Assembly: GCA_027452025.1 (NCBI GenBank)
Contig: DAIDHI010000080.1
Location: 58 to 64,057 of the forward strand
Reading direction: 5' to 3'
From: Elusimicrobiota bacterium
GTDB taxonomy: Bacteria; Elusimicrobiota; Elusimicrobia; UBA1565; UBA9628
Length of the DNA: 64,000 bases
The translations under genes were made by a program, and so were the position numbers. Position 1 is the first letter of the stretch, and each line of letters begins with the position of its first letter. A model generated the notes under the pieces. It saw only the letters and a program-made list of their open reading frames with translations, was not told where the DNA came from and searched no databases. Below, piece after piece: positions 5,667 through 61,502 of this stretch.

Positions 5667-5678
5667 CCGGAGATCGCC

Positions 5679-7304: not shown

Positions 7305-8012
7305 ATGAGAATGACCGCCGCCGTCGTCGCCCTCTTGCTCGGCTCGCAGGCCTTCGCCGACGCCGCCCCCGCGAAGAAGTCGTCGTCGACGGGGACGTCC
7401 TCGTCGATGAGCGCGGACCAGAAGACATTCTACGCCCTCGGCATGGCGTTGGCCGATAATCTGAAGGTGTTCAGCCTGACGCGCCCGGAAGTCAAGCTCG
7501 TGGAACGAGGCCTGGAAGACGCCACGCTGGGCCGGCCGACCTCGGTGACCCTGCAGGAATACGGTCCAAAGATCCGGGCCTTGGCGGAGCAGCGCATGGC
7601 TGCCCAGGCGAAGAAAGAAAAGGCGCGCGACGCCGCGTTCGCGACCAACGTCCTCAAGGAACCGGGCGCCAAGACGTATCCTTCGGGCCTGATCATGATC
7701 GTGCTCAAGCCCGGCAAGGGGCCCTCGCCCAAGGCGACGGACACCGTCAAGGTGGACTACGAAGGCAAGCTCACCAACGGCAAAGTCTTCGACAGCTCGA
7801 TTGCCCGCGGCCAGCCCGCGGAATTCCCGCTCAACGCCGTCATCCCGTGCTGGACGGAAGCCGTCCAGAAGATGAAGGTCGGAGAGACGGCCCGACTGAT
7901 CTGCCCGTCGAAGATCGCCTACGGCGACGAGGGCCGGCCGCCTCAGATTCCGGGCGGCGCGACGCTGGACTTTAAGGTCACCCTGCTCTCCATCGTCAAC
8001 AAGAAGCCCTGA
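7305..8012 (+). CDS. FKBP-type peptidyl-prolyl cis-trans isomerase (FkpA/Mip-like, periplasmic)
   Basis: Signal peptide, an N-terminal dimerisation-helix region and a C-terminal FKBP domain (VDYEGKLTNGKVFDSS...IPGGATLDFKVTLLSI). AAGGAG lies upstream of ATG 7305. Confidence 0.85.
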   Translation: MRMTAAVVALLLGSQAFADAAPAKKSSSTGTSSSMSADQKTFYALGMALADNLKVFSLTRPEVKLVERGLEDATLGRPTSVTLQEYGPKIRALAEQRMAAQAKKEKARDAAFATNVLKEPGAKTYPSGLIMIVLKPGKGPSPKATDTVKVDYEGKLTNGKVFDSSIARGQPAEFPLNAVIPCWTEAVQKMKVGETARLICPSKIAYGDEGRPPQIPGGATLDFKVTLLSIVNKKP

Positions 8013-8015
8013 CGA

Positions 8016-8381
8016 TCAGCCGCGCCGGCGCCGGTGCTGGCGCAAAAGGCAATCGTCGGATACGACGAGGAGGCCCGCTTTGCGGGCGCGCTCTTCGCCG
8101 GCCGGGTGCGTGATCCCGTCTTGCAGCCAAAGCGCCTTCGCCTTGATCTTGATGGCCTCGTCGATCACGGGACCCACGACCTCGGGGTTGCGAAAGACAT
8201 CGACGACGTCGACGGGAAACGGGATCGCCGACAGGCTCGGATAGCACGTCTGCCCCAGCAATTCCTCGTGCCCGGGATTGACGGGAACCACGCGGTAGCC
8301 CCGCTCCTGCAGGTAGGCGGCCACGTAGTGGCCGGGACGGTCGGGCTTGGGCGAGCAGCCCACGACGGCGATGGTCTTCAT
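8016..8381 (-). CDS. CoA-binding domain protein (YccU-like)
   Basis: MKTIAVVGCSPKPDRPGHYVAAYLQERGYRVVPVNP is the typical CoA_binding_2 N-terminus. ATG at 8381 is preferred over the listed 8606. Confidence 0.8.
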   Translation of the reverse strand: MKTIAVVGCSPKPDRPGHYVAAYLQERGYRVVPVNPGHEELLGQTCYPSLSAIPFPVDVVDVFRNPEVVGPVIDEAIKIKAKALWLQDGITHPAGEERARKAGLLVVSDDCLLRQHRRRRG

Positions 8382-8452
8382 CGCCAGAATCCGATCGACG
8401 ACGTCGGCCGGCGCGCCTCCGGGCGTCAACCGGCAGGCGGAGCCGTCGGCCA

Positions 8453-8830
8453 CTAGGCGCGGTACGCTTCGACCTGGACTTCGCCGTCCTCGATCTGGAC
8501 GTGCACGGAGACGACGCGCGAGCAGACCTCGCAATCCTCGTACATCGTCTGCCCGTCGGATTCCGACGTGACATGGACCTCGAAAGTCTCCCCGCAATAG
8601 GGGCACTCGACTTCGGCGTCCTCGTCGATGGCCGGCGTCTCCGGTGCGGCCGTGACCTCGGTCAAAACGGCTTCCAGGACCTTGGCCTGCCGGCTTTCCT
8701 CCCGCTCCTCCGCCGGCTCGGCGGTCCGGGCGGAAGCCGCCTTCCTGCGAACGGCTGGCCTCTTCGCGTGACTCGGCTTGGCTTTCACAAGCAATATATA
8801 CCCCCCACCTTTTTCCCGCGCAAGACCCAA
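8453..8830 (-). CDS. CPXCG-motif cysteine-rich (zinc-ribbon) protein
   Basis: C-terminal ECPYCGETFEV...YEDCEVCSRVVSVHV matches the CPXCG small-protein family. The start is uncertain (TTG 8830, GTG 8788 or later). The N-terminal half is low-complexity. Confidence 0.55.
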   Translation of the reverse strand: MGLAREKGGGYILLVKAKPSHAKRPAVRRKAASARTAEPAEEREESRQAKVLEAVLTEVTAAPETPAIDEDAEVECPYCGETFEVHVTSESDGQTMYEDCEVCSRVVSVHVQIEDGEVQVEAYRA

Positions 8831-8846
8831 AACTCCTGGGACCAGC

Positions 8847-12518: not shown

Positions 12519-15269
<2,751 letters not shown>

Positions 15270-18380: not shown

Positions 18381-20517
<2,137 letters not shown>

Positions 20518-20534
<17 letters not shown>

Positions 20535-30629: not shown

Positions 30630-32612
30630 TCAGCTGGCCGCGGCGGAAAACGCGGCGAAATCGCTCATGCGAGGCATCTTGCGCACATAGGCGACGGCCT
30701 GCATCCGGTCGAGCGCGAGGCGCTGGGCGACCGGCAGGCTCGACATGGGCATGGCCAGGAAAAGGAAAGAGTCGTCCTCTTCGAAGACCCAGCGCCGCTT
30801 GACGAGGTCTGCGAGCGCCCGGCGCACGCGCTTGGCCGAGCAGCGGGGAAACTTTTCTTGGCAGGCCCGCAGGACGCCGGGGAAGGGACGGATCTCGTCG
30901 CAGGCTTCCAGGATCGCGGCCTCAAGGCCCGTGACCAGGCGCTGCCGGTGCTCGATGCGCCGGGAAAGCCCGAGCGGACGCGAGTCGTAGACCTCCATGA
31001 AGCCGAGGCCCTTGCGATAGGCGAAATAGTTCTTCTGGTAGATCCGCTGCCAATGGTCGAATATCGGGCGTATCACGGGCTCGGCGTAGTCAGCCGGATC
31101 CGGCTGCCCTTCGACGCTCGGCGCCTCGAAGAAGTAGGCGATCTCGCCGCGCTTGAAGCGCGGCTCTGGGTAGAGGAAACGGTATTCCTCCATAGGCACG
31201 GGCTCCCGCAGCCCGAAGCGCCGCCAGTCGAAGTAGTAGGGGCTGAAGCGGTCGACCCGGATGACGTGGGCGTAAAACGGCGGCTGCAGGTGCGTCGCCG
31301 CCGCCATCGTATCGGCGATCCTGCGGTACTCGTCGGGCGACTCGCCGGGAAAGCCCCACAGCATCCCCCACGTCAGCTGAATGCGGCCCGCGCAGGCCTT
31401 GAGCGCCTGGAGGTTTTGGATGGTCTTGACGCCCTTGCGCATCAGCTTGAGGACGGGCGTGCTGAAGCTCTCGATGCCCGCTTGGATCGCCAGGATTCCG
31501 GCCTCGTGAAGAGTCTCGATCTGGGCCGCCGTCAAGTTCGCCTTGGTCTCGAAAAAAACGTGCCACTCGAGCTTGTGCTTCTTGCGAAACTCCGCCAGGA
31601 CGGCGGTGAGGCTGGTGAGGTGCTCCACGCTCAGGATGTTGTCGCAGGCATGCAGCCGGTAGGTCTTGTATCTCTCGAAGAGGAAGGCGATCTCGGCGGC
31701 GACGGCCTGCGCCGGCTTGGCGCGGAACGTCATGCCGTCGCGGTTGAGCCCGCAGAACGTGCAGTGCTGCTTCTGCCCCCACCAGCATCCGCGGGAGGCC
31801 TCGAAAGTCACCTGCGGCGAGACCCACGATGCCATGCCCGAGGCCTCAAGCTCACGGAAATAGTCGTCGTGGTCGGGAACTGGCACGCGGCGCATGTCGG
31901 CCAGGCGCGTCTCAGCGGGGTTTCGGGAGACGACGCCCTCGCCTGTCCGCGCCGAGACATGCGGCATCCCCTTCGGGAGCCGGCCGGAGCGGATGTGCCG
32001 CAGCAGCGCCGGAAACGCCTCCTCGGCCTCGCCTTCGACGACGTAGTCGACCCACTCGCAGCCCTTGAGCGTCGCCACCCCCATCTCGCCGTCGCAATTG
32101 GCTCCGCCGAGGACGATCGTCGTTTTCGGATGCTTGCGCTTGATGAGGCGGGCCAGCGCCAGAGAGGCGATGTGATTGTGGAACATGCTGCTGAAGCCGA
32201 CGACGTCGTAGCGCCCCCAGGGGACGTCGGCCAGGCAATGCTCGAGGAAAGCCGGCACGTCGTCGCGCACGAGCCTGCGCAGGCGCTCGCGCGGAAATTT
32301 TCCAAGGTTCTTGGCGAACACGGGCTCGGCGAGGACGTCCTCGAGCTCGTCAGGCAGCTCCTTGAGGCCGCCCGGGCCGAAAAGATGATAGGCGAAGGCC
32401 CACTGCGCGAAATGCCCGTAGGGAGCGAGCGCGAAGGCGTCGAGAAGGTCGTCGGCCCACCGGCCGAAGCGCAAGTTGAGGTAGTGGACGTCGCAAGGCA
32501 TCCCTTCACGCGCGAGGACGCTTTTGAGCACGCCGACTCCGAGCGGAGGCCGGTCGGGCGCGGCCCAAGGCATGACGACCAAGGCGACGCGGAGGCTGCG
32601 CGGTTTGGACAT
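30630..32612 (-). CDS. B12-binding-domain radical SAM enzyme (class B; resembles RiPP C-methyltransferase-type)
   Basis: N-terminal LRVALVVMPWAAPDRPPLGVGVLKSVLAREGMPCDVHYLNLRF (cobalamin-binding-like Rossmann region), then SRGCWWGQKQHCTFCGLN (Cx7Cx2C cluster motif). 660 aa from ATG 32612. The listed 840-aa ORF has a junk N-terminus. Confidence 0.85.
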   Translation of the reverse strand: MSKPRSLRVALVVMPWAAPDRPPLGVGVLKSVLAREGMPCDVHYLNLRFGRWADDLLDAFALAPYGHFAQWAFAYHLFGPGGLKELPDELEDVLAEPVFAKNLGKFPRERLRRLVRDDVPAFLEHCLADVPWGRYDVVGFSSMFHNHIASLALARLIKRKHPKTTIVLGGANCDGEMGVATLKGCEWVDYVVEGEAEEAFPALLRHIRSGRLPKGMPHVSARTGEGVVSRNPAETRLADMRRVPVPDHDDYFRELEASGMASWVSPQVTFEASRGCWWGQKQHCTFCGLNRDGMTFRAKPAQAVAAEIAFLFERYKTYRLHACDNILSVEHLTSLTAVLAEFRKKHKLEWHVFFETKANLTAAQIETLHEAGILAIQAGIESFSTPVLKLMRKGVKTIQNLQALKACAGRIQLTWGMLWGFPGESPDEYRRIADTMAAATHLQPPFYAHVIRVDRFSPYYFDWRRFGLREPVPMEEYRFLYPEPRFKRGEIAYFFEAPSVEGQPDPADYAEPVIRPIFDHWQRIYQKNYFAYRKGLGFMEVYDSRPLGLSRRIEHRQRLVTGLEAAILEACDEIRPFPGVLRACQEKFPRCSAKRVRRALADLVKRRWVFEEDDSFLFLAMPMSSLPVAQRLALDRMQAVAYVRKMPRMSDFAAFSAAAS

Positions 32613-32657
32613 TTTGTTGCAAGGGGACGTCGCTGAAGTATTATAGTATATCGCCCT

Positions 32658-33209
32658 ATGGAGATCGTCGAGGAAGCCAGCGATATTTTCAGCTTTCAGC
32701 TCCTCTCGCCGAGCTATTGCCAAAAACTCGTCCGGTGGGCTTCGCGGGACCTCCGGTGGAATCGCGGGCGCGTGTACGCCGGTCCGCGGCGCCTGCAGGA
32801 CGCCGCCTCCCGCCGCTGCCTGGAGCGCACGGTCGCCGGCCTGCCCCCTCCCTGGAACGAGCTGGCGCAGGCTTGCCGCGAAAAGGCGCTTTCCGCGGCG
32901 CGGCTGTGCTGGCGCGAGCGCTTCAGGCGGCTGACCGGAGCGCGTCTGGTGCGCTACGACCCCGGCGGCTATTTCAAGATGCATTGCGACTTCCTCCCCA
33001 GCCTGCGGGTCAAGCCGCGCTTCCTGAGCCTGGTCTGCTATCTCAACGAAGACTTCTCGGGCGGGCGCACGGCCTTCCCGCGGCAAGCCCACGACATCGT
33101 CCCAAAGACCGGGAAAGCCGTCCTCTTCCCGTCCTCGATCACGCACCCTCACGAAGCCCAGGCCGTCCGAGAGGGGACCCGCTACGTGATCGTGGCCTGG
33201 GTCGAATGA
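32658..33209 (+). CDS. 2OG-Fe(II) oxygenase (prolyl-4-hydroxylase-like)
   Basis: YFKMHCD (HxD) ... ITHPHEA (distal His) ... RYVIVAWV, a double-stranded beta-helix pattern. 183 aa. Confidence 0.75.
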   Translation: MEIVEEASDIFSFQLLSPSYCQKLVRWASRDLRWNRGRVYAGPRRLQDAASRRCLERTVAGLPPPWNELAQACREKALSAARLCWRERFRRLTGARLVRYDPGGYFKMHCDFLPSLRVKPRFLSLVCYLNEDFSGGRTAFPRQAHDIVPKTGKAVLFPSSITHPHEAQAVREGTRYVIVAWVE

Positions 33210-37565: not shown

Positions 37566-38084
37566 ATGGCGGCCTCAAAAGTCGTTTTGCTCGTCGGCCA
37601 CGGGGGAATCCCCAAGGATTGCCCGCCGCAGCTCGTCTCCGAGTTCAAGCGCGAGGAGGCCCGGGCGGCCGGAAAGCCCTCCGCGCGCCTCCTCGAGCTC
37701 GACGCCCGCCTGCGCCAATGGCCCCGGACGCCGGAAAACGACCCCTATAAGCCCGGCTTGGAGGCCGTGGCGGCCTCCCTCGCCGCGGCCCTGCCGGAGC
37801 ACGACGTCGTCACCGCCTACAACGAATTCTGCGCGCCAAGCCTCGAGCAGGCCTTCGACGAGGCCGTGGCGGGCGGCGCCCGCCAGATCATTGTGATCAC
37901 CACCATGTACACGCGCGGGGGCATCCACAGCGAAAAGGAAATCCCAGCGATCCTGGAGGGCCTGCGCCGGCGCCATCCGGGAGTCGAGGCCCGCTACGTC
38001 TGGCCCTTCGATGCCGCGGCGATCGGGGAGTTCCTGGCCCGGGAAGTGCGCCGTACCGAGACGGACGCGCCGGCCCCGGCATGA
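37566..38084 (+). CDS. CbiX/SirB-type sirohydrochlorin chelatase-like protein
   Basis: VVLLVGHGGIP... and ...IIVITTMYTRGGIHSEKEIP match the small CbiX(S) pattern. 172 aa. Confidence 0.65.
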   Translation: MAASKVVLLVGHGGIPKDCPPQLVSEFKREEARAAGKPSARLLELDARLRQWPRTPENDPYKPGLEAVAASLAAALPEHDVVTAYNEFCAPSLEQAFDEAVAGGARQIIVITTMYTRGGIHSEKEIPAILEGLRRRHPGVEARYVWPFDAAAIGEFLAREVRRTETDAPAPA

Positions 38085-39865
38085 AGCTCTGGCTGACCTT
38101 GGCCGCGCTCCTGGCAGCCGCGACGCCCGCGCAAGCTTTCTTCTCCCACGCCCGAAAGGCCGCTTCCCCGCCGGCCGCGCCCGCGCCGCCGCCCGAACCC
38201 CTCGATCCGCTGACGACGGCCGAGATCGACGGCGCGGCGCAGGCGCTGCGCGACTCGCGGCTTTTCAGCGATTCCGCCGTCTACCTTTCCATCGCCCTCC
38301 AGGAGCCGTCCAAAGACGAGCCGGGCGCGGGCAAAAGGCTCGCCGCCGCCGTCATCTATGACCGCGCGCGCCGCGAGACCTCGGAGGCCGTCGTCGACGT
38401 CGCCAACCGCAAGCTCGAGTCGTGGCGCCTGGTCCCCGGCATAGAGCCCGGGCTTTCCGACGAGGAGCTCTCGCGGGCGCGGAAACTGGCGTTGTCCGAC
38501 TCCCGCTTCAAGGCGGCGATGGCGGCGCGCGGCCGCAAGACCTGGGACGATCTCGAGGTCGACGGCTGGTCGCCCGGGCCGCTCGACGCGGCGCGCAACT
38601 CGCCGCACCGGGTGGCGCGTCTGGACTTCTACGTGCCCGCGGCGCGCGGCCGCGTCCTCATCGACGGGCTGCAGGCGCTGGCCGACCTGACCGAGGGCAC
38701 GGTCGTCGAGCTGCTCGACGCCGGCGGGCCGCCTCTGCCGCCGCCGGCCCAGGCCCAGGCCCCGGCCCCCGCGCCGCCGCCGCAGCCGGCCAAGAAGAAG
38801 AAAAAACGGGAGGAAGCCCCCGCGCCTGCGGCGCCCTCCTACCCGTTCGAGGTCGCCGGCCACGAACTGCGCTGGCGAGGATGGACGCTGCGCTACGCGC
38901 TGACGCCGCGCGAAGGGCTCGTCCTCTACGAGGTCTCGCGCGACGGCCGGGGGATCGCCGACCGGGCGAGCCTTTCCGAGACGTTCGTCGTCTACGGCGA
39001 CGCGCGGCCGCAGTGGGCCGACCGCTCGGTTTTCCAGGAAGGCGAGCGCGGCCTGGGCCTGCGCGATATCCCGCTCGATCCCGCCCTGGACGCTCCCTCG
39101 CAAGCCGCCTTTTTCGACGAACCGGGCCCGGGGCCGGACGGCCGGGGCCGGATGCTGACGCGCGCCGTCGCCGTCTTCGAGCGAGACGCCGGCCGCGGAG
39201 CCGTCCGCCGCCTCAAGGAGCTCGTCCTCGAATCCAAGGCGCAGGCCGGACCCGAGACCTACGTCACGCGCTGGACCCTGGGCGACGACGGCGAGCTCGA
39301 CGCCGGCGTCGACGTCTCGCAAGACGACCCGGAGGCGCCGCCGCACCAGCATTTCTTCAATTTCAGGGTGGATTTCGACGTCGACGGCAGCACCGACTCG
39401 GTGGCCGAGCTGGAGGCCGCGCCCGGACGGATGACCCTGCTGTCGACGCCCCTGGAAAACCGCTCCCAGGCCCGTCGCGACGTCGACGAGGCGGCGGGCC
39501 GCCGGTGGCTCGTGACGGCGTCCTCCCCCTCGGCCGACGCCTCCCGAGGCTACCTGATCATCCCGGAGGGCAACGCGGCGCCGCTTTCGCCCGCCTTCTC
39601 GCCCGCGCGCCGCGCCGCGCCCTTCATCGGTCACCAGCTTTGGATCACGGCCTACCGCCCCGACGAGCTTTACGCGGCCGGAGAGTTCCCGGGCCGCCGC
39701 GCGCGCGCCGGAGGCGTCGAGCGCTGGACCCAGCGCGACGAGCCGATCCGCGACGCAGACCTCGTCGTCTGGTACACGCTGGGAGCCACGCATCTGCCCA
39801 GGGCCGACGGCTCCGCCCGCCGCCCGCTTTCCTGCCGCCTGCGCCTGGTCCCCGCCGGGCGCTAG
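38081..39865 (+). CDS. copper amine oxidase-fold protein (divergent; secreted)
   Basis: Signal peptide MKLWLTLAALLAAATPAQA. The C-terminal domain carries HQHFFNFRVDFDVDG (HxH copper ligands) and VVWYTLGATHLPRADG (third His). The canonical NY(D/E)Y TPQ motif is not seen. Confidence 0.6.
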   Translation: MKLWLTLAALLAAATPAQAFFSHARKAASPPAAPAPPPEPLDPLTTAEIDGAAQALRDSRLFSDSAVYLSIALQEPSKDEPGAGKRLAAAVIYDRARRETSEAVVDVANRKLESWRLVPGIEPGLSDEELSRARKLALSDSRFKAAMAARGRKTWDDLEVDGWSPGPLDAARNSPHRVARLDFYVPAARGRVLIDGLQALADLTEGTVVELLDAGGPPLPPPAQAQAPAPAPPPQPAKKKKKREEAPAPAAPSYPFEVAGHELRWRGWTLRYALTPREGLVLYEVSRDGRGIADRASLSETFVVYGDARPQWADRSVFQEGERGLGLRDIPLDPALDAPSQAAFFDEPGPGPDGRGRMLTRAVAVFERDAGRGAVRRLKELVLESKAQAGPETYVTRWTLGDDGELDAGVDVSQDDPEAPPHQHFFNFRVDFDVDGSTDSVAELEAAPGRMTLLSTPLENRSQARRDVDEAAGRRWLVTASSPSADASRGYLIIPEGNAAPLSPAFSPARRAAPFIGHQLWITAYRPDELYAAGEFPGRRARAGGVERWTQRDEPIRDADLVVWYTLGATHLPRADGSARRPLSCRLRLVPAGR

Positions 39866-51862: not shown

Positions 51863-52378
51863 ATGAGCGACAGGCTTAAGGCGGCGAAGGCGCGGTTCGT
51901 GTCCACCTGGGGCGAGATGGCGTCCCATTGGGGCATCAACAAGACGATGGCGCGCATCCATGCGCTGCTCATCGCCTCCGACGCCGCGCTCTCGGTCGAC
52001 GAGATCATGGCAACGCTCTCGATCAGCCGCGGTAACGCCAGCATGAACCTGCGGGCGCTGATGGACTGGGGCCTGGTCAGGCGCGTTTCGGTGGGCAGCG
52101 AGCGGCGCGAGTATTTCCAGAGCGAGAAGGACGTCTGGAACATGTGCTGCCGCATCGCGCGCGAGCGCAAGAAGCGGGAGATCGAGCCCGTGATCGGCGC
52201 TCTGGAGGAATGCCTGCGCGAAGCCGGGGAAGGCCAGGACTCGGCGGCCTTCCGGCGCCGGACCAAGGAGCTCTTGGAGCTGGTCAAGACCCTCGATTTC
52301 GTGCTCGGCAAGGTCGCCGCGCAAGAGAAGAACGCCGTCATGCCGCGCGTGCTGACGCTGCTCAAGGCCATGTCATGA
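51863..52378 (+). CDS. GbsR/MarR-like winged-helix transcriptional regulator
   Basis: FVSTWGEMASHWGINKTMARIHALLIASDAALSVDEIMATLSISRGNASMNLRALMDWGLVRRV is the GbsR-type wHTH pattern. Confidence 0.7.
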   Translation: MSDRLKAAKARFVSTWGEMASHWGINKTMARIHALLIASDAALSVDEIMATLSISRGNASMNLRALMDWGLVRRVSVGSERREYFQSEKDVWNMCCRIARERKKREIEPVIGALEECLREAGEGQDSAAFRRRTKELLELVKTLDFVLGKVAAQEKNAVMPRVLTLLKAMS

Positions 52379-53319
52379 CTCCCGCTTCTTTATTAAAGGT
52401 GGAGGACTCGCTCTCCCGCGTTCGCGCGGGCCTGGAGAGCCGCGCCCTGCGCATCGAGGGCCGGGTCGGCCGGGAGCTGGCGGCCTTCGTGGCCCGCCCG
52501 GGAAAGATGCTGCGCTCGCGCTTCTGCCTGCTTTTGGGCGGCGCGCTGGGCGTGCCGCGGGACAAGGCCGAGGCGGCCGCCCGGGCGCTGGAGCTGGTGC
52601 ACAACGCCAGCCTCCTCCATGACGACTGCATCGACGAGGCCACGCTTCGCCGCAGCCGGCCCACGCCCAACGCCCTTTTCAACATCCCGACGGCGCTGCT
52701 CATCGGCGATCTGGCTTTTTCCCAAGGCCTCGAGGAGGCCGTGGACGTTTCGCCGAGCGCGGCCAAGCTCCTGGCCGCGGCGGTGCGCGAGATGTCGGTC
52801 GGGGAGCTTCAGGAGGAGTTCCTCAAGGGCGACGCCGACTTGACCGTCGACGCCTACATCGGCGTCTGCTCGCGCAAGACCGGCGCGCTCTTCGAGTGGG
52901 CCGGGGCGGTGCTCTCGGAGCTGAGCCCCTTTCCCCACGAGCAGGCGGACCCGCCGCGGCTGGCCTGCGCGGCCGGCATCCTCCTTCAGGTCGTCGACGA
53001 CATCCACGACTACACCCTGGGCGAGCGGGTGTCGGGCAAGGACGAGGGCCAGGACGTCAAGAACCGGCGGCTGACGCTGCCCTGCCTCTACGCCCTGGCC
53101 GACGCGCGGGCCCGCGAGGAGTTTCTCAAGCTTTGGCGAGGCGGCGACGCGACGGGAGTGGGACGGTTCCTCGTCGAGGGCGGGTTCGTCGCGAAGGCGC
53201 GCGGGAAGGGGCGGGAGCTGGCCGACTCCATGACGGCGATGGCGCGCGCCCTGCCCTGCCGCGCCGAGGCCTCCCAATTGGCCTTCTTCATCGACCTGCT
53301 GGTCAAGAGGGAATTTTGA
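52375..53319 (+). CDS. polyprenyl diphosphate synthase (trans-isoprenyl, FARM/SARM type)
   Basis: First Asp-rich motif LLHDDCIDE and second motif VVDDIHD. 314 aa. The ATG overlaps the regulator stop (ATGA). Confidence 0.88.
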   Translation: MTPASLLKVEDSLSRVRAGLESRALRIEGRVGRELAAFVARPGKMLRSRFCLLLGGALGVPRDKAEAAARALELVHNASLLHDDCIDEATLRRSRPTPNALFNIPTALLIGDLAFSQGLEEAVDVSPSAAKLLAAAVREMSVGELQEEFLKGDADLTVDAYIGVCSRKTGALFEWAGAVLSELSPFPHEQADPPRLACAAGILLQVVDDIHDYTLGERVSGKDEGQDVKNRRLTLPCLYALADARAREEFLKLWRGGDATGVGRFLVEGGFVAKARGKGRELADSMTAMARALPCRAEASQLAFFIDLLVKREF

Positions 53320-53320
53320 G

Positions 53321-53761
53321 ATGTCTTACGAGGCCCTGGTCAAGAAAGCGTGGGCGAGCGGGACGTTCAAGCTCGACGAGGCCGAGGCCGGAAAGGCCGA
53401 TCCGTCGGCGGCCGTCAGTCGCGAGGCCGTGCGCCGGGAGATGGAACAGATCGCGGAGAGGGAGACCTGGGACGCCGCAAGCTGCTTCTCCGCCCATAAA
53501 GAGGGAATCATGAAACTAGCTCCGTTCGTGAAGTTCCGTGAAGAGAAGTTCGGCGCCGTGCTCTTTGAGACGCGCTCGGAGAAGGTCTATACGCTCAGCC
53601 CGAGCGGCGCCGCCGTCGTGCGGGAAGTGGTCGCCGGGGCCACTTCCAGCGACCTGCCGGCCAGGCTCAAGCAGAAGTTCGAGGACCCCACCGGGAAGAT
53701 GGAGCAGGAAGCGGCAAGCTTCCTGGCCCAGCTCAAGGACAAGGGCCTCGTCGTCGAGTAG
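53321..53761 (+). CDS. PqqD-family peptide chaperone (RRE) with 63-aa N-terminal extension
   Basis: The C-terminal 83 aa (MKLAPFVKFREEKFGAVLFETRSEKVYTLSPSGAAVVREV...FLAQLKDKGLVV) show the PqqD/MftB pattern. The N-terminal 63 aa have high GC3, so they are probably translated. There is an internal alternative start at 53510. Both ATGs are preceded by AAGAGGGAAT. Confidence 0.7.
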   Translation: MSYEALVKKAWASGTFKLDEAEAGKADPSAAVSREAVRREMEQIAERETWDAASCFSAHKEGIMKLAPFVKFREEKFGAVLFETRSEKVYTLSPSGAAVVREVVAGATSSDLPARLKQKFEDPTGKMEQEAASFLAQLKDKGLVVE

Positions 53762-53767
53762 GGCGCC

Positions 53768-54739
53768 GTGACCGCGCAAGCTCCCGAAAGCGCGCCGCAG
53801 ACGGGCACCGAGGATCTCGGCGCCCCGCTCTACGTCGCCTGGCAGATCACCAACGAGTGCAACCTGGCCTGCCTACACTGCATCGAGGAGTCCGGGCCGG
53901 GAAAGGCCTTCAAGGACGAGCTGACCACCGAGGAGGCTTACCGCCTCATCGACCAGCTCGCGCAAGGCGAGGTGCCCTACGTCTCCTTCTCGGGCGGCGA
54001 GCCGATGGTCCGGCCGGACTTCTTCGGCATGGTCGAGAGAATCACTCGGGGCGGCGTCGGGCTCAAGATCGAGACCAACGGCCATTACCTAACCGCTGAC
54101 AACTGCCGCCGCCTCAAGGACCTGGGCGTCAAGGCCGTCCAGGTCTCCCTCGACGGCGCCAGCCCCGCCTCGTTCAACAAGATGCGGGTCCACGGCCGCT
54201 TCGAGTCGGCGCTGGAAGGCATCGGCCGGCTGCGCGAGGCGGGCGTGCCGATCGAAATCAACTTCGTGCCGGCGAAGTTTAATATCCGCGAGATCGGCGC
54301 CGCCGTCGACTTGGCCTACCGGCTCGGGGCGTATTCGTTCTATACCGGCAAGCTGATGTATACCGGCAACGCCGTGCGCACCTGGGGCATCACCGCCCCC
54401 GACGAGGCGGAGTATCCCGCCTACTTCGCCGCGCTCAAGGAGAAGGCCAAGGAGTACGAAGGCCGCATGCGCGTCTACTACCACGAGATGGGGCTGCTCG
54501 AGGAGCTGCGCTACCGCCTGAAAAACCCCGCCGCCCTCTTCATCGTCCTGCCCAACGGCAAGGTCAAGCTCATCAACGCCCTGCCCTTTATCTGCGGCGA
54601 CCTGCGCCGCCAGAGCCTGGGCCAGGTCTGGCAGAGCTTCCAGCTCGCCTGGAAAAGCCCGCGGGTCAGCGCCTTCATCGACGAGCTCGCCGCCGACCCC
54701 TCGATCCTGTCTCGTCTGCACCGCTGGGAGGAGGTCTAG
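53768..54739 (+). CDS. radical SAM enzyme, PqqE/AhbD-like core, SPASM cysteines absent (paralog 1)
   Basis: YVAWQITNECNLACLHC (Cx3Cx2C), SFSGGEP, KIETNG, VQVSLDG. The C-terminal region ...VLPNGKVKLINALPFICGDL keeps only one Cys. Confidence 0.85.
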   Translation: MTAQAPESAPQTGTEDLGAPLYVAWQITNECNLACLHCIEESGPGKAFKDELTTEEAYRLIDQLAQGEVPYVSFSGGEPMVRPDFFGMVERITRGGVGLKIETNGHYLTADNCRRLKDLGVKAVQVSLDGASPASFNKMRVHGRFESALEGIGRLREAGVPIEINFVPAKFNIREIGAAVDLAYRLGAYSFYTGKLMYTGNAVRTWGITAPDEAEYPAYFAALKEKAKEYEGRMRVYYHEMGLLEELRYRLKNPAALFIVLPNGKVKLINALPFICGDLRRQSLGQVWQSFQLAWKSPRVSAFIDELAADPSILSRLHRWEEV

Positions 54740-54745
54740 GCGGAC

Positions 54746-55633
54746 ATGAGCCTCGTCGGCAAGGCCGCGGCGCTGGTGCGCTACCGCTTCTTTCTCTACG
54801 CGGGCCTCCTGCCCTATCTGCTGGGCGCGGCCTGGGCCTACGGCGTGGACCGGCAGTTTCGGCCCGGCGTCTTCTGGCTCGGCCTGCTCGGGATCTTCCT
54901 CGCCGTCGTCGGAGTCGAGAGCTTCAACGAGTATTTCGACGCGAAGATGGGGACCGACCGGGTCTTCAATCCCGACGCCGACGAGAACATCCCGGAGTGG
55001 ATGTTCTCGCTCGGCGTGGCCGCCTTCGCGCTGGCCGCGGCGGTCGGCTTCTACCTGGCCTGGGAAGGCGGCTGGCCCGTGGTCCTCTATACTCTGCTCG
55101 GCGGCGCCGCCGCCGTCTGGTACGTGGGCCCGCCCGTGCGCTGGGTCTACCGGGGCCTTGGCGAGGCCGTGATCGGGCTGTCCTACGGCCCGTGGATGAC
55201 GCTGGGCTCGGTGCAGCTGCACACGCACCGTTTTTCCTGGGGCGCGCTGGCCGCGTCGCTCGTCCCCGGCCTGCTGATCATGGCGCTGGCCGTGGTCAAC
55301 AACATCCCCGATTATCATCAGGACCGGCTGGTCGGCAAGAGGAACCTCGTCGTGAGGCTGGGCCGGGAGAAGGGACGGCTGCTCTACCTCGCCTTGTCGG
55401 GGCTGGGCTTGGCCGTGATCGTCGCCGGAGCGGCGGCGGGGACGTTCCCGCGCCTTTGCCTGCTGGCCGCGCTGCCCGGCGCCGCCCTTTGGTGGGCGAG
55501 CCTGCGCGCCGGCCGGGACACCTGGGACACGCCCCGCGCCTTCCTGCCGGCCATCAAGAGCATCGTGCAATGCTACGCCTTGACGACGCTGATCTTCGCC
55601 TTGGCGGTGGCGTTCGGAGCGCGCCTGGCATGA
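54746..55633 (+). CDS. UbiA-superfamily aromatic prenyltransferase, MenA-like
   Basis: NEYFDAKMGTD (compare MenA NDYGDAVKGSD) and NNIPDYHQDRLVGKRNLVVRLG (compare MenA NNLRDINSDRENGKNTLVVRLG, recalled from E. coli). 8-9 TM helices. Confidence 0.85.
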   Translation: MSLVGKAAALVRYRFFLYAGLLPYLLGAAWAYGVDRQFRPGVFWLGLLGIFLAVVGVESFNEYFDAKMGTDRVFNPDADENIPEWMFSLGVAAFALAAAVGFYLAWEGGWPVVLYTLLGGAAAVWYVGPPVRWVYRGLGEAVIGLSYGPWMTLGSVQLHTHRFSWGALAASLVPGLLIMALAVVNNIPDYHQDRLVGKRNLVVRLGREKGRLLYLALSGLGLAVIVAGAAAGTFPRLCLLAALPGAALWWASLRAGRDTWDTPRAFLPAIKSIVQCYALTTLIFALAVAFGARLA

Positions 55634-56592
55634 GGATCGATTCCCTGAGCGCCCCGGCGATGGTCGCCTGGCAGCTCACGCGCGACTGCAACCTCGCCTG
55701 CCTGCACTGCTGCACGGACTCCGCGCCGGGCCGGGCGCTGCCCGGCGAGCTGCCGCGCGAGAGAGCCCTGTCTCTGGCGCGCGAGATCGCCGAGGCGGGC
55801 GTGCCTTACGCGCTGATCGCCGGCGGCGAGCCGAGCTTGGTCTCGCATTTCGGCGAGGTCTGCGCCGCGCTTTCCCAGGGCGGCGTCTGGCTCAAGGTCG
55901 AGACCAACGGCCAGAGCTTCGACGTCTCGGCGCTGCGCGGCCTGCGCGTGCGCTCGGTGCAAGTCTCGCTCGACGGCGCGACTCGGCGCGTCTACGCCCG
56001 ACAGCGGCCGGGCGGCGACCTGGAGAAGGCCCTGGCCTGCGGCCGCGCCGTGCGCGCCGCCGGGCTGCCCCTGGAGATCACGTTCGCCCCCACTCTCCTC
56101 AACATCGACGAGGCCGGCGCCGTCATCGACTTGGCCCTGGAGCTCGGAGCCTTCCGCTTCAACACCGGAAGGCTCATGCGATTGGGCACCGCCGCCAAGC
56201 TCTGGCAGCGCCTGGAGCCTTCGCAGGAGCGCTACGAAAGGTTCCTCGCGCTGCTCGAGCGGCGCGAGCGCGAGCTGGCCGGACGCCTGGAGCTGTGCTT
56301 CCGGCCGTTTTCGCTGCCCGAGGATGCCCGGGCCCTCAGACGCGAGCCCCCGGGGACCTTGCTGATCCTCCCCGACGGCCGCGTGAAAGTGGCCGCGCCG
56401 CTGCCCTACACCTGTTTCGACGTGACGAAACGTCCGTTTCTCGAGGCGTGGGACGCGTATCGCAAGTCTTTCGGCGATCCGCGCGTCCTGCGCGCCTTCG
56501 AGCGCCTCGCCGCCGACCCCGCGTCGTCGGCGAAGGCCAATGAGTGGGTCGACCTGGAGTCCGTCGCCTTCGATTTGCCGGCCGTGGTCTGA
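55630..56592 (+). CDS. radical SAM enzyme, PqqE/AhbD-like core, SPASM cysteines absent (paralog 2)
   Basis: MVAWQLTRDCNLACLHC, IAGGEP, KVETNG, VQVSLDG, ...ILPDGRVKVAAPLPYTCFDV. The ATG overlaps the prenyltransferase stop (ATGA). Confidence 0.85.
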   Translation: MRIDSLSAPAMVAWQLTRDCNLACLHCCTDSAPGRALPGELPRERALSLAREIAEAGVPYALIAGGEPSLVSHFGEVCAALSQGGVWLKVETNGQSFDVSALRGLRVRSVQVSLDGATRRVYARQRPGGDLEKALACGRAVRAAGLPLEITFAPTLLNIDEAGAVIDLALELGAFRFNTGRLMRLGTAAKLWQRLEPSQERYERFLALLERRERELAGRLELCFRPFSLPEDARALRREPPGTLLILPDGRVKVAAPLPYTCFDVTKRPFLEAWDAYRKSFGDPRVLRAFERLAADPASSAKANEWVDLESVAFDLPAVV

Positions 56593-56612
56593 CCGGCAGA
56601 CAGGAGTCAAGC

Positions 56613-56735
56613 ATGAACGACCAGAAGAAGACCGTGACCGTCGTGAAGGCCGAGCCGAAGCTCGTTTGGCAGACCCCCTCCCTGGAGGAGGTCTCCGATC
56701 GGGTGATGGCGCAGCCTTACATCCGGTTCACGTGA
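56613..56735 (+). CDS. 40-aa candidate precursor peptide (PqqA-like): MNDQKKTVTVVKAEPKLVWQTPSLEEVSDRVMAQPYIRFT
   Basis: AGGAG SD lies 7 nt upstream of ATG 56613. 37 of 40 codons end in G/C by hand count. The TGA stop overlaps the GTG start of the next radical SAM gene (GTGA). It is visible only as the tail of the listed ORF 56544-56735. Confidence 0.6.
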   Translation: MNDQKKTVTVVKAEPKLVWQTPSLEEVSDRVMAQPYIRFT

Positions 56736-57700
56736 CGCACGGGAGAGGGGCGTCCGTGGGCGACTACGGCGCCCCTCTCTTTCTGGCCTGGCAGCTGACC
56801 AACCGCTGCACGGGCAGCTGCCTGCACTGCTGCGAGGAATCCGGGCCCGACAAGGCTTGGCCCGACGAGATGAGCCGCGAGCAGTGCTTGTCGCTGGCCC
56901 GGCAGATCGCGCGCATGGGCGTGCCTTACGTGGCCTTCGGCGGCGGCGAGCCGATGGGCTCGCCCCACGTCTGGGAGATCTTCGAGATCCTGGCGCGCGG
57001 CGGCGTCGAGATCAAGATCGAGACCAACGGGCTGCTCCTGGACGACGCGGCCTGCGACCGGCTCAAGGCCTTGAACGTCGCCTGCGTGCAGATCTCCATC
57101 GACGGGGCGACGGCCGCCGTTCACGAGGGCCTGCGTCCCGGCTCCGGCTACGCGCCGGCCTGGGAGGCGATCGACCGCCTGGTCTCGCGCGGCCTGGGTC
57201 CCGAGCTCGTTTTCATCCCCACCAAGCTCAACGTCTCCGGCGCCGTCGCCGTCTATGAGCAAGCGGCGCGGCGGGGCGTGCGCACGTTCGTGACGGGGCC
57301 GCTCATGCGCCTGGGGCGGGCCGCCGCGGCCTGGGAGGCCCTGGCCTGCTCCGAGGAGCAATGGGCCGCCGCGGCCGAGGCCCTGCGGCAGGCCTCGCTG
57401 CGCGAAAAAGGCCCGCGCCTGGCGCTCTATCCTTGGGGCATCCAGGCCGAGATGAAGACCCGCGCCGAAAGCCCGCAGGCCATGGTGCTGGTCGTGCCCA
57501 ACGGCCGGGTCAAGCTCCTCAACGCCCTGCCCTTCGCCGCCGCCGACCTCAAGACCGAGACGCTGGCCGCGGCCTGGCCGAAGGTCGCCGCCGCCTGGCG
57601 GCGGCCCGAGGTCCAGGACTTCGTGCGCCGCGCGCAAAGCGACCCCGGTCTTCTGCGCCACGCCAACGAGTGCTGGGACGTGGCCCTCGCCGGCGCCTAA
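56732..57700 (+). CDS. radical SAM enzyme, PqqE/AhbD-like core, SPASM cysteines absent (paralog 3)
   Basis: LFLAWQLTNRCTGSCLHC, FGGGEP, KIETNG, VQISIDG, ...VVPNGRVKLLNALPFAAADL (no Cys at the SPASM-entry position). GTG 56732 is preferred, and GTG 56756 is also in frame. Confidence 0.85.
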   Translation: MTHGRGASVGDYGAPLFLAWQLTNRCTGSCLHCCEESGPDKAWPDEMSREQCLSLARQIARMGVPYVAFGGGEPMGSPHVWEIFEILARGGVEIKIETNGLLLDDAACDRLKALNVACVQISIDGATAAVHEGLRPGSGYAPAWEAIDRLVSRGLGPELVFIPTKLNVSGAVAVYEQAARRGVRTFVTGPLMRLGRAAAAWEALACSEEQWAAAAEALRQASLREKGPRLALYPWGIQAEMKTRAESPQAMVLVVPNGRVKLLNALPFAAADLKTETLAAAWPKVAAAWRRPEVQDFVRRAQSDPGLLRHANECWDVALAGA

Positions 57701-57744
57701 AACTCGCTGCGACGGGCGGCAAAACTGCTATCCTGAGACGTCGC

Positions 57745-58191
57745 ATGGCGGCTCTCTTTCCTCACGGCTGGATCCATTACTTGGCGGGCGGCCTGCTCAT
57801 CGGCTGCGGGGTCTCGCTGATCTATCTCTGCACCGGCGTGGCCGCCGGCACGAGCTCTTTTTTCAGCGCGCAGTGGTCCTGGTTCTCGCGCCTGGGCTTT
57901 TTTAGGCAGGAGCGCTGGCGCGAGGAACGCGGCTGGCGGCTGATCTACGCCGCCGGCCTGGTCGCCGGAGCGCTGCTTTGGCGGCTCGAGACCGGCGTCT
58001 GCCTGACGACGTCCGTGGAGCCGCGCAGGCTCCTCGTCGGCGGCCTGCTGGCCGGCTTCGGTGCGCGCCTTTCGGGCGGCTGCACGGCCGGCCACGGCAT
58101 CTGCGGCCTCGCCTCTCTCAAGAAGGAGTCTTTCGTGGCCGTTCCCGTCTTCCTGCTCACGGCGATCCTCGTGGCGAGGCTCCTGCCGTGA
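57745..58191 (+). CDS. YeeE/YedE-family (sulfur-compound transport) membrane protein, half-size subunit 1
   Basis: GGLLIGCGVSLIYL... and ...LSGGCTAGHGICGL conserved Cys motifs of the YeeE/YedE family. 148 aa. Confidence 0.75.
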   Translation: MAALFPHGWIHYLAGGLLIGCGVSLIYLCTGVAAGTSSFFSAQWSWFSRLGFFRQERWREERGWRLIYAAGLVAGALLWRLETGVCLTTSVEPRRLLVGGLLAGFGARLSGGCTAGHGICGLASLKKESFVAVPVFLLTAILVARLLP

Positions 58192-58598
58192 AGCGCGCCG
58201 CCGCGGCGCTCTTGGGCGGCGTCCTCTTCGGCCTGGGCCTGGCCGTTTCCGGCATGGTCCGGCCCGAGACCGTCCTCGATTTCCTCCACCTGCGCGACAT
58301 GGGCCTTTTGCTCGTGCTCGGCGGGGCGGCGGGCGTCAGCCTCCTCGCCTTCCAGCTCGCGCCGCGGCTGCTCGGCCGGCCGGCGTTCGGAGGAAGCTTC
58401 GAGCCGCATCCCGGGCGCCTGAGCGGACGCACCTTCGCCGGCGCGGCGATCTTCGGGGCGGGCTGGGGCCTGTGCGGAGTCTGCCCGGGGCCGGCCGTGG
58501 CGGGCCTGGGCGCGGGCCTGACGGCGCTCTTGTGGTCCGTCGCCGGGCTCGCGCTCGGCGCCTGGCTGCACGGGCTCTATCAAGAGCTGGCCGGCTAG
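58188..58598 (+). CDS. YeeE/YedE-family membrane protein, half-size subunit 2
   Basis: LLGGVLFGLGLAVSGM...GAGWGLCGVCPGPA motif. The GTG overlaps the upstream stop (GTGA). Confidence 0.7.
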   Translation: MKRAAAALLGGVLFGLGLAVSGMVRPETVLDFLHLRDMGLLLVLGGAAGVSLLAFQLAPRLLGRPAFGGSFEPHPGRLSGRTFAGAAIFGAGWGLCGVCPGPAVAGLGAGLTALLWSVAGLALGAWLHGLYQELAG

Positions 58599-60259: not shown

Positions 60260-60294
60260 GACCCCGCTCGCCCCGCGAGCGGGGTCTTTTTTTT
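60260..60294 (+). terminator. Rho-independent terminator
   Basis: GACCCCGCTCG / CGAGCGGGGTC 11-bp stem, loop CCCCG, followed by T8 (60287-60294). The T-run overlaps the stop codon of the convergent gene. Confidence 0.85.
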
Positions 60295-61502
60295 CAGCGC
60301 AAGACCAGCCGCGAGTCCGGCGGCCACAGGCGCGGCGTCTGATCCCGGCCGAAGCCCCGGGCCGCGTCCTCGACGCGCGGCGCGAGATAGCGCTCGAGGC
60401 CCGCGGCCGTCACGCGGCCGGAGGCGTCGGCGGCCTCGCCGTCGAGGCCCTTGAGCAGGTAATACGTGAAGGCGCCATGGCCGACGCGGTCGAGCGAGAC
60501 GGAGACTTGCCTCGGGCCGGAGGCCGTCAGGACGGTCAGCGTGGGGTCGCGAGGCAGAGCTGATTCGACCCGCGTGACCAGCGGGCGGACGTTGGAGGCC
60601 AGGACCGAGCGCGGGCCCGCGCCCGAAAAGCAGGCGTCGAGCGCGACGAAGGTTTGGCGCGCGCCGAGCTCGGAAAGGTCGGCATAGAGGCGTTTGAGCG
60701 GGAAGCCAGTTTTCTTGAGGTAGTTCGCATCGCCGTCCCAGGGCACCAGATAAGCCGCGCCGGTGACCGGGTCCGGCGCTCCGTGGCCGGAAAAGAAGAA
60801 ATAGACCCGGCTGTCCTCCTTGACGCGGCGAGGCAGCCACAGCTCCAGGTATTTCTCCAGGCTCGCCAGCCCGGCCTTGTCGTCGGCCAGGAAGACCACG
60901 TTGCGCGGCGGCACGCCCAGGGCGAGCAGGTGCCGGTAGACGGCCCGGGCGTCGCGCACGGCGTAGCGCGCGTCGGGCAGGTCCGAATAATGCTCGACGC
61001 CGACGGCCACGGCCAGGTCGTGCGGCCGCTGCGGCAGCCGGTAGTCCGGCTCGGCCAGCGGGTCCTCGGAGCCGGGCAGCGGCCCGGGCGCGGACGGCTG
61101 GGCCCCGGCCGCCGGCAGCGAGGCGAGCAGGCCGGGGTCGGAGAGCAGCCGGCGGGCGACCTTCCGCGACAAGTCGCGCATCGCGCCCGACCACGTCCAG
61201 AGGCTGCGCGTCTCGACTGAAAAAAGCCGCCGCGAGCGGGCGCCGTCGTAGACGTCCGCGGTGAATCCCACGCCGCGCCCGAGCTCTATTTGCAGGTCGC
61301 AGTCCCGCTTGCCCTGCCGCGCGCGGTCAAACTCCGCGGCGTAGCGCAGAAACAGGGGAACCAGCGGCTCGTCGTCGGCGGTCTTGGCCGAGACGCAGAC
61401 CGCGGCGTCGAACCCCGCGCGCGCCGGCGCGGCGGCGGGCCCGAAGGACGACAGAAGGAGCAGAAGCGCGGCGGTCATGCGGCGGGGCGGGGCTAGCCGC
61501 AA
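60294..61502 (-). CDS. secreted caspase-like (peptidase C14) domain protein
   Basis: Signal peptide. A C14 His-Cys dyad context is present: YFFFSGHGAPD and FVALDACFSGAG. The start is 61502 or 61478. Confidence 0.72.
   Translation of the reverse strand: MRLAPPRRMTAALLLLLSSFGPAAAPARAGFDAAVCVSAKTADDEPLVPLFLRYAAEFDRARQGKRDCDLQIELGRGVGFTADVYDGARSRRLFSVETRSLWTWSGAMRDLSRKVARRLLSDPGLLASLPAAGAQPSAPGPLPGSEDPLAEPDYRLPQRPHDLAVAVGVEHYSDLPDARYAVRDARAVYRHLLALGVPPRNVVFLADDKAGLASLEKYLELWLPRRVKEDSRVYFFFSGHGAPDPVTGAAYLVPWDGDANYLKKTGFPLKRLYADLSELGARQTFVALDACFSGAGPRSVLASNVRPLVTRVESALPRDPTLTVLTASGPRQVSVSLDRVGHGAFTYYLLKGLDGEAADASGRVTAAGLERYLAPRVEDAARGFGRDQTPRLWPPDSRLVLR

Follow-up and report, generated by a model that had tools for sequence, protein, structure and literature searches.

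What does a membrane prenyltransferase that resembles MenA do among genes of the kind that mature ribosomally synthesized, post-translationally modified peptides (RiPPs)? The question is raised by a 64-kb stretch of high-GC DNA (~68%) from an Elusimicrobiota bacterium (GenBank assembly GCA_027452025.1, contig DAIDHI010000080.1, positions 58 to 64,057), here called the window and used for all coordinates unless another locus is named, in which a UbiA-superfamily prenyltransferase gene lies between genes for radical SAM (rSAM) enzymes, close to genes for a PqqD-family peptide chaperone and a polyprenyl diphosphate synthase. The original prediction for this locus proposed that prenylation belongs to the same pathway as the RiPP-type genes, with a dedicated isoprenoid supply and a small aromatic acceptor. 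We find that the chaperone, rSAM and prenyltransferase genes, together with the gene for a 40-residue precursor peptide of invariant C-terminus, form a conserved and apparently previously undescribed cassette that is spread across phyla. Our proposal, for which we put the chances at about even, is that the rSAM enzymes modify the Tyr-containing core of the ribosomal peptide and that its polyprenylation yields a membrane redox cofactor.

Layout and conservation of the cassette

Eight genes of the same strand occupy 51863-57700 (+), and because no gap between them exceeds 20 nt and the tightest junction is a 4-nt overlap, those from the synthase to the last rSAM (52378-57700) are regarded as one operon. 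In order, the eight encode a MarR/GbsR-like regulator (51863-52378), the trans-polyprenyl diphosphate synthase (52378-53319), the PqqD-family chaperone (53321-53761), rSAM1 (53768-54739), the UbiA-family prenyltransferase (54746-55633), rSAM2 (55630-56592), the precursor peptide (56613-56735) and rSAM3 (56756-57700). The predicted position of the prenyltransferase gene between the first two rSAM paralogs agrees with these coordinates. The synthase gene, which had been placed two genes upstream of the PqqD gene, is directly adjacent to it (1-nt gap), and both rSAM3 and the peptide gene between rSAM2 and rSAM3 are additions to the predicted gene list. For rSAM3 the start codon is a GTG downstream of the peptide gene rather than the ATG at 56540; the rSAM3 ortholog in L003 begins MGDYGAPLFLAWQLT (labels such as L001, L085 and L093 denote individual loci compared with the window, whose closest relatives are Elusimicrobia metagenome-assembled genomes).

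A search with a UbiA profile found relatives in 270 species-level genomes, and the best 80 were taken for locus analysis. Every contig with enough room is ordered PqqD-rSAM1-UbiA-rSAM2-peptide-rSAM3 (74/74), and the exact peptide C-terminus is present in 74 of the 80 loci; the other six contigs stop before the peptide position. The reverse search, by back-translated MAQPYIRFT* (a pattern estimated at ~44 bits, for which ~0.1 chance matches are expected), matched at least 120 metagenome contigs. The enzymes were seen in 115 of 120 such contigs, and UbiA in each of the 14 with 2.6 kb or more on each side. The gene set is obligately linked and spread across phyla. That interleaving, rather than simple adjacency, means one pathway had been argued in the original prediction; the argument holds up, since every roomy UbiA-found locus keeps both the interleaved order and the peptide, and no rSAM/PqqD set without a linked prenyltransferase was seen among the 14 roomy peptide-found loci.

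Besides Elusimicrobiota, the cassette was found in alpha-, beta- and gammaproteobacteria (among them Rhodopila globiformis DSM 161, Rhodovibrionaceae, Casimicrobiaceae, Steroidobacteraceae and Alcaligenaceae). The cultured R. globiformis DSM 161 has an intact copy, a six-gene cluster at about 6491-10972 of L081. A distant UbiA branch, 35-48% identical to the window protein, occurs in Omnitrophota, with some of its proteins named Planctomycetota or Phycisphaerales. The cassette of this Omnitrophota type is minimal: it consists of peptide, PqqD (84-86 residues), one rSAM and UbiA, in that order and sometimes followed by a polyprenyl synthase, and it has the same C-terminal 9-mer. In L085 the set, synthase included, spans 6607-9874. 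Its single rSAM is 45-46% identical to rSAM1 versus 37-40% to rSAM2 and rSAM3, and is orthologous to rSAM1; because the minimal cassette makes do with this one enzyme, a single rSAM appears to be sufficient, with rSAM2 and rSAM3 as later additions. All-against-all clustering of the flanking open reading frames (ORFs; the longest were called, which in DNA of high GC content brought in antisense noise) revealed no further gene conserved with the core, proteases, hydroxylases and methyltransferases included, and no exporter or protease is linked to the cassette.

Some loci depart from these two architectures. L199 (11483-13925) carries a variant of minimal-type order, peptide-PqqD-rSAM-rSAM, with a long-chain synthase upstream, and L156 (1-2611) a divergent UbiA-rSAM-peptide-rSAM arrangement. 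Lone peptide genes, with no chaperone, rSAM or UbiA gene in the DNA fetched, were seen at L128 (1041-1070), L164 (1191-1220) and L186 and may be extra copies or parts of split clusters; the one at L128 follows a NuoG-like Fer2_4/Fer4 gene and precedes TauE, metallo-beta-lactamase-fold and 2-oxoacid dehydrogenase genes.

An invariant precursor peptide

The window peptide, MNDQKKTVTVVKAEPKLVWQTPSLEEVSDRVMAQPYIRFT, has 40 residues, and its gene (56613-56735, +) has an AGGAG ribosome-binding site 6 nt upstream. Across loci the N-terminus varies in length and sequence, whereas the leader motif, W-[EQ]-[TK]-P-x-[LMI]-E-[ED]-[VI]-[ST] (WxxPxLEEVS in the window), and the core are fixed. The C-terminal nine residues, MAQPYIRFT*, are identical in all copies seen; 79 UbiA-found loci carry the identical 9-mer, and their last 10 codons come in 49 DNA versions, all differences between which are synonymous. 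The peptide ORF is under purifying selection as coding sequence. An invariant core and a kept leader behind a variable N-terminus are what precursors of cofactors, PqqA and MftA for example, typically show, and antibiotics and signals do not. The ORF with its ribosome-binding site, its division into leader and core and the selection on its coding sequence correspond to what defines a RiPP precursor, and the PF05402 and PF04055 genes alongside, together with an rSAM1 fold nearest to RiPP maturases, correspond to the recognition and modification machinery of the same definition.

For comparison with the precursor of pyrroloquinoline quinone (PQQ), a set was assembled from K. pneumoniae PqqA, checked against the annotated pqqA, and eight further PqqA sequences. 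PqqA and the cassette peptide share the pattern WxxP-x-hydrophobic-x-acidic-aliphatic and, counted from the Trp, have a Tyr at +17 and their C-terminus at +21; hhalign aligns the two leaders in the same register (P = 0.0012, with a probability of only 19%). The cross-linking Glu of PqqA is replaced by an invariant Met in the cassette peptide, and the Tyr is kept in the PqqA register.

The chaperone and the radical SAM enzymes

Proteins were scored against Pfam and against NCBIfam (June 2026) with its curated cutoffs. The PqqD ORF (53321-53761, 146 residues) has its RiPP recognition element domain at residues 64-146 (PF05402, 37.8 bits versus a cutoff of 23.4) and scores below the cutoffs of the PQQ-specific TIGR03859 (20 versus 46) and of MftB (22.4 versus 33). 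It begins with a 63-residue extension (53321-53509; MSYxAL.K.AW.SG...), of which L001 and L003 keep the length and part of the sequence. This extension is specific to Elusimicrobia; the PqqD proteins of proteobacteria and Omnitrophota, at ~81-86 residues, are without it.

The three window rSAM enzymes are paralogs (PF04055 in rSAM1; rSAM2 is 38% and rSAM3 40% identical to rSAM1), and all retain the CX3CX2C and GGEP motifs. They show no SPASM Pfam match and no SPASM cysteines, with only 2-6 scattered Cys outside CX3CX2C. Their NCBIfam matches are all far below the cutoffs: AhbD and NirJ2, the top matches of rSAM1; MftC, which is among the best matches for all three (83-126 bits versus 265); and PqqE (TIGR02109, 90 versus 381). 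The AlphaFold2 model of rSAM1 (predicted local distance difference test score, pLDDT, 92.3) has as its nearest folds the RiPP maturases SkfB, PqqE and SuiB. The futalosine pathway, in which MqnC/E rSAMs act with MqnP, was considered as a source of this gene combination and rejected: no Mqn model is among the best 25 NCBIfam matches of each rSAM, and the enzymes are of PqqE/MftC/SkfB type.

A MenA-like prenyltransferase outside MenA

The protein encoded at 54746-55633 (+) has the UbiA-superfamily membrane fold and both Asp-rich motifs, as judged from its PF01040 match (83 bits), AlphaFold2 model and alignment; the predicted motif stretches, NEYFDAKMGTD and NNIPDYHQDRLVGKRNLVVRLG, were both seen in the alignment. 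Its nine best NCBIfam matches are all MenA-type, eight of them 1,4-dihydroxy-2-naphthoate (DHNA) polyprenyltransferase/MenA models and one a generic PRK "prenyltransferase", and all nine stay below the cutoffs, including those of the MenA equivalogs (the best, NF004751, at 109.3 bits versus 264, and TIGR00751 at 63.5 versus 102.15). The Omnitrophota-type protein likewise falls below every MenA cutoff. The ChlG/BchG models match weakly, the MenA models being ahead of ChlG by ~70 bits, and heme O synthase (CtaB/CyoE) is absent from the NCBIfam match list. Identity to the E. coli proteins is 24-25% for MenA, 15% for UbiA and 18% for CyoE. The sole sequence match in the PDB is UBIAD1, which is also the best fold match of the model (pLDDT 89.7; template modelling score 0.70-0.73), ahead of digeranylgeranylglyceryl phosphate synthase (DGGGPS) and ApUbiA. 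The claim that the resemblance to MenA exceeds that to heme O synthase or DGGGPS is borne out by these profile, identity and structural matches.

The placement of the protein among its relatives, proposed as a check in the original prediction, was carried out by neighbour joining with 58 outgroup sequences and one experimentally defined MenA, that of E. coli, as reference. Of 100 bootstraps of this tree, 74 recover the 23 cassette-linked proteins as a single clade and 89 exclude E. coli MenA from them. The cassette proteins share the signature NE[YF]FD ... N(N/E)IPDYxQDxLVGKRNLVVRLG, in which the first Asp of motif 1 is an invariant Glu, and an insertion of the nearest MenA-like group is missing from them. 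Judged by its sequence, then, the enzyme is MenA-like but not MenA and belongs to a separate clade. Identity with an orthologous MenA or MqnP had been named in the original prediction as one part of a case against a joint pathway; the protein lies below every curated MenA cutoff and in its own clade, and no men, mqn or ubi gene was found in the neighbourhoods inspected or among the 30 window ORFs scanned.

Isoprenoid supply

The synthase (52378-53319, +; PF00348, 141 bits) contains both of the predicted Asp-rich motifs, LLHDDCIDE and VVDDIHD, and keeps all of the catalytic residues shared by IspB and IspA (K43, R46, H75, D82/83/86, R91, K167, T168, Q204, D207/208/211 and K221). It is far below all NCBIfam cutoffs, and its best matches after an encapsulin-cargo model are HepT and solanesyl and octaprenyl synthases; with both DDxxD motifs intact, it appears to represent a divergent clade of trans-polyprenyl diphosphate synthases. 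In the alignment with the E. coli proteins its chain-length region is of IspB type (NASLLHDDCIDE, matching IspB TATLLHDDVVDE and differing from IspA AYSLIHDDLPAMDD). The residues upstream of the first DDxxD, from which it had been suggested that chain length be predicted, are Ala at -5 and Ser at -4, without a two-residue insertion. Small residues at these two positions and no such insertion are the established rule for products longer than C20, and the window synthase is predicted to make a medium or long chain.

In 51 Elusimicrobia-type loci the synthase gene accompanies the cassette. Sixteen proteobacterial loci were examined for it: in 15 it was not detected, and the remaining one, L077, is too short for a verdict. 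The Omnitrophota-type loci L085, L158 and L199 have a different, HepT-like synthase that is 24% identical to the window enzyme and not orthologous to it; the independent recruitment of two non-orthologous synthases in two architectures argues for a real need for polyprenyl diphosphate. The dedicated isoprenoid supply of the original prediction thus stands for Elusimicrobia-type and some Omnitrophota-type loci and not for the proteobacterial ones examined: it is lineage-specific. A role of the synthase itself as a ComQ-like peptide prenyltransferase was considered and rejected, as its chain-elongation residues are intact and it is absent from the proteobacterial cassettes examined.

Respiratory genes around the cassette

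In six Omnitrophota-type loci (L085, L158, L162, L167, L183 and L166) the genes directly upstream, on the same strand, form an nqrA-F-type operon, and NqrF was found in ten loci. Rnf/Nqr-like and NuoE/F/G-like genes occur in L086, L128, L136 and L165, and two Proton_antipo_M genes (NuoM/N or Mrp type) directly upstream in L093. L084 has complex I genes 6 kb downstream, and in L085 an NrfD gene is close to the cassette. NapC/NirT, a CymA-like tetrahaem quinol dehydrogenase, is present in 23 loci, and in eight metagenome loci its gene is inside the cassette, between rSAM2 and the peptide (L190, at 12850-13488, L131, L184, L099, L092, L116, L139 and L169). MtrA-like proteins were found in 15 loci, MtrB-like in 12 and MtrC-like in five, 2-oxoacid:ferredoxin oxidoreductase in five, and fumarate reductase or succinate dehydrogenase and Isp-type [NiFe] hydrogenase in three each. 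As raw counts that carry no background frequency, these recurrent quinone-coupled respiratory modules are suggestive.

An ORF of ~1200 residues without a Pfam match recurs downstream of rSAM3, beside the NapC/NirT-, MtrA- and MtrB-like genes, in six soil metagenome loci (L206, at 4938-8573, L100, L132, L157, L171 and L194); part of it may have been produced by calling the longest ORFs in DNA of high GC content.

Proposed pathway and alternatives

In the pathway that we propose, the PqqD-family chaperone would bind the 40-residue precursor through its WxxPxLE(E/D)VS leader and hand it to rSAM1, the putatively ancestral and sufficient maturase, and in the three-paralog version also to rSAM2 and rSAM3. 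The rSAM enzymes would modify the core MAQPYIRFT, the likeliest site being the Tyr, whose register is that of the Tyr cross-linked in PqqA. The MenA-like UbiA enzyme could then C-prenylate the Tyr-derived phenolic ring with a medium or long polyprenyl chain, supplied in Elusimicrobia and some Omnitrophota by the neighbouring synthase and elsewhere presumably by housekeeping synthases; for the small aromatic acceptor inferred in the original prediction, the invariant Tyr of the core would be a more specific candidate. The product would stay in the membrane and may serve quinone-coupled respiratory enzymes as a lipoquinone-like carrier or bound cofactor. A bolder version, which we put forward tentatively and regard as doubtful, holds the product to be a ribosomally templated respiratory lipoquinone, its head group carved by rSAM chemistry from a PqqA-like Tyr core and polyprenylated by the MenA-like enzyme, by a route independent of the chorismate-derived menaquinone and ubiquinone; as a low-potential quinone it would be used with Nqr by the Omnitrophota type and with CymA/Mtr, fumarate reductase and Isp hydrogenase by soil proteobacteria.

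Several observations weigh against the proposal. We know of no UbiA-family enzyme with a peptide-sized acceptor. The similarity to PqqA is weak by profile statistics (the 19% probability above), the PqqA model does not detect the cassette peptide, and no NCBIfam family does so at E <= 1. Two or three stand-alone peptide genes (L128, L164, L186) lie apart from the enzymes in the DNA fetched, and in L093 the peptide follows the two Proton_antipo_M genes, partly apart from the enzymes. The case for a respiratory role draws on the raw neighbour counts, and the window itself has no respiratory neighbour, its flanks holding a MarR-like regulator, a YeeE/YedE pair, a tetratricopeptide repeat (TPR) protein, a caspase-like peptidase and housekeeping genes. 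To build a true quinone head group, reactions beyond those of the cassette would be needed, since no hydroxylase, methyltransferase or dedicated protease is conserved with it; and because proteobacteria as a rule make ubiquinone, the product would not simply be a replacement quinone in the proteobacterial carriers.

Linkage and peptide evidence fit equally well a product of the same biosynthesis that is no electron carrier, such as a membrane-anchored lipopeptide serving as a structural or assembly factor, a non-redox prosthetic group or a signal. The cassette includes no hydroxylase or methyltransferase with which to build a quinone, the neighbourhood in the window is not respiratory, and prenylated RiPP signals such as ComX exist. 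The cores of signals and antibiotics vary, however, whereas this one is invariant across at least three phyla, like that of PqqA or MftA; no exporter or protease is linked; and the recurring neighbours are specifically quinone-coupled, to the point of a quinol dehydrogenase gene inside the cassette. We consider a non-carrier product unlikely. The operon might instead serve two products, with UbiA and the synthase acting in ordinary menaquinone-type prenylation of a free aromatic acid and the peptide, PqqD and rSAM genes making a separate, soluble cofactor of the PQQ/mycofactocin kind for the same respiratory enzymes. That the best profile and structure matches are MenA and UBIAD1, that no member of the UbiA family is known to us to take a peptide substrate and that quinone-related neighbours would suit a quinone prenyltransferase just as well all fit this division. 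It is nevertheless improbable, given how widely the MenA equivalog cutoffs are missed (109 versus 264 and 63.5 versus 102), the separate clade with its invariant Glu for the first Asp of motif 1, and the missing men, mqn and ubi genes in the neighbourhoods inspected; moreover, UbiA keeps its place in both architectures and in all phyla, and nothing more than peptide, chaperone, a single rSAM and UbiA makes up the minimal cassette.

Tetrapyrrole tailoring, finally, would combine AhbD/NirJ-like rSAMs with a transferase resembling chlorophyll synthase or heme O synthase to give a prenylated heme-type cofactor, and it has in its favour the top NCBIfam matches of rSAM1 (AhbD and NirJ2) and the weak BchG/ChlG matches of the UbiA protein. 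Meheust and colleagues reportedly described, in 2020, rSAM-rich loci of Elusimicrobia that were proposed to modify tetrapyrroles. Yet the AhbD/NirJ matches extend over no more than the generic rSAM core and fall far short of cutoff, the MenA models beat ChlG by ~70 bits with CtaB/CyoE absent from the match list, and neither the obligate PqqD chaperone nor the invariant peptide would have a role in a tetrapyrrole pathway. No tetrapyrrole gene is conserved nearby, and no nitrogenase-like gene is among the 30 window ORFs scanned. We disfavour this reading as very improbable indeed. A peptide-derived, polyprenylated membrane cofactor remains the proposal that we prefer.

Other features of the window

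The MarR/GbsR-like helix-turn-helix regulator (51863-52378, +; Pfam MarR_2/HTH_20, with a weak NCBIfam CudC match) abuts the synthase gene and, by tblastn, is found upstream of the synthase in ~15 Elusimicrobia-type loci; it is an accessory of only a subset of the Elusimicrobia loci. Directly downstream of rSAM3 lies a split YeeE/YedE-type sulfur-transport pair (Sulf_transp and DUF6691; 57733-58598, +) that is not conserved with the cassette elsewhere. A caspase-like Peptidase_C14 is encoded at 60294-61502 (-), with two copies directly downstream of the cassette in L001 (13021-15551) and none there in L003; it recurs in some Elusimicrobia without being conserved with the cassette and could be a lineage-specific leader protease or reflect shared gene order.

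Further away, the window encodes a 904-residue ORF with malate synthase and isocitrate lyase domains, an apparent fusion of the glyoxylate-shunt enzymes (8847-11561, -); a 717-residue protein that joins a Ser/Thr protein kinase to a long TPR array (18381-20534, +); and an 840-residue B12-binding radical SAM protein whose long N-terminal region has no Pfam match (30630-33152, -). A copper amine oxidase (38081-39865, +), 12 kb upstream, is probably unrelated to the cassette; enzymes of this family use the Tyr-derived cofactor topaquinone.

Novelty and implications

In the full-text literature, a coverage that leaves out most subscription journals, we found no published description of the cassette and no RiPP pathway with a UbiA-family enzyme; the pairing of RiPP machinery with an integral-membrane UbiA-family prenyltransferase is thus one for which no earlier case was found. 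No cassette protein reaches the cutoff of an NCBIfam family, MenA, PqqE, PqqD and MftC included, and the existing names are only "prenyltransferase", "DHNA octaprenyltransferase" and "radical SAM protein". PQQ and mycofactocin are soluble, peptide-derived cofactors, and respiratory quinones are not, to our knowledge, derived from ribosomal peptides. The cassette is represented in no fewer than 270 species-level genomes and by thousands of metagenome proteins, with a core that is invariant from Elusimicrobiota to Omnitrophota and Proteobacteria. Its nqr, nuoM/N-type, frd, CymA/Mtr and hydrogenase context suggests that electron transport under anaerobic or microaerobic conditions in soils and groundwater has a component so far unrecognised. 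A pathway of this kind would explain automated "MenA" calls and would affect quinone-based metabolic inference for uncultured phyla. It is open to experiment, through the copy in cultured Rhodopila globiformis DSM 161 and through the four-gene minimal form, which is small enough for heterologous expression.

Comparison with known systems

The cassette is closest in its peptide part to the PQQ system, with which it shares a short and highly conserved precursor, the WxxP leader with Tyr at +17 and C-terminus at +21 from the Trp, a PqqD-family chaperone, a maturase fold (PqqE is among the top two PDB matches of rSAM1) and cofactor-like conservation. It differs in that the Glu-X3-Tyr of PqqA is replaced by MAQPY, with Met for Glu, and in that its one to three rSAMs lack SPASM cysteines and reach 90 bits against a PqqE cutoff of 381; no PqqB, PqqC or PqqF/G is conserved with it, and UbiA is obligate. 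With mycofactocin it has in common the RiPP-derived redox cofactor (here as proposed), the C-terminal Tyr-containing core, the PqqD-like chaperone and the rSAM chemistry. The cassette peptide, however, ends in IRFT, not in the C-terminal Gly-Val-Tyr of MftA, its enzymes miss the MftC (83-126 versus 265) and MftB (22.4 versus 33) cutoffs, and MftD, MftE and MftF are lacking. Mycofactocin is glycosylated and soluble, not prenylated.

On the prenylation side, the enzyme resembles MenA and UBIAD1 in its UbiA fold, both Asp-rich motifs, the GK(R/N)(N/T)LVVRLG signature and its best profile, sequence and structure matches, and in the long-chain polyprenyl synthase that is sometimes adjacent. It is set apart by scores below the curated cutoffs, a clade of its own, an identity of 24-25% to E. 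coli MenA, a first motif of NE..D in place of ND..D and a location among RiPP genes rather than men or mqn genes. Prenylation of RiPPs is known from the cyanobactin F-type ABBA enzymes (PagF on Tyr) and from ComQ, which acts on the Trp of ComX. These enzymes are soluble, of ABBA fold or similar to isoprenyl diphosphate synthases (IPPS-like), and use C5-C15 donors on variable peptides. The proposed step would likewise place an isoprenoid on an aromatic side chain of a ribosomal peptide, with Tyr as a known target, but with an integral-membrane UbiA-family enzyme, a long-chain-type synthase and an invariant core. The models of homogentisate phytyltransferase barely register (E = 0.0035, for the L085 UbiA protein). 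Homogentisate prenyltransferases, which act in the formation of plastoquinone and tocopherol, are UbiA-family enzymes that C-prenylate a Tyr-derived phenolic ring to give a membrane redox lipid. There soluble enzymes make the ring as a free small molecule; in the cassette it would be carried on a ribosomal peptide, and homogentisate prenylation provides the chemical precedent for that step.

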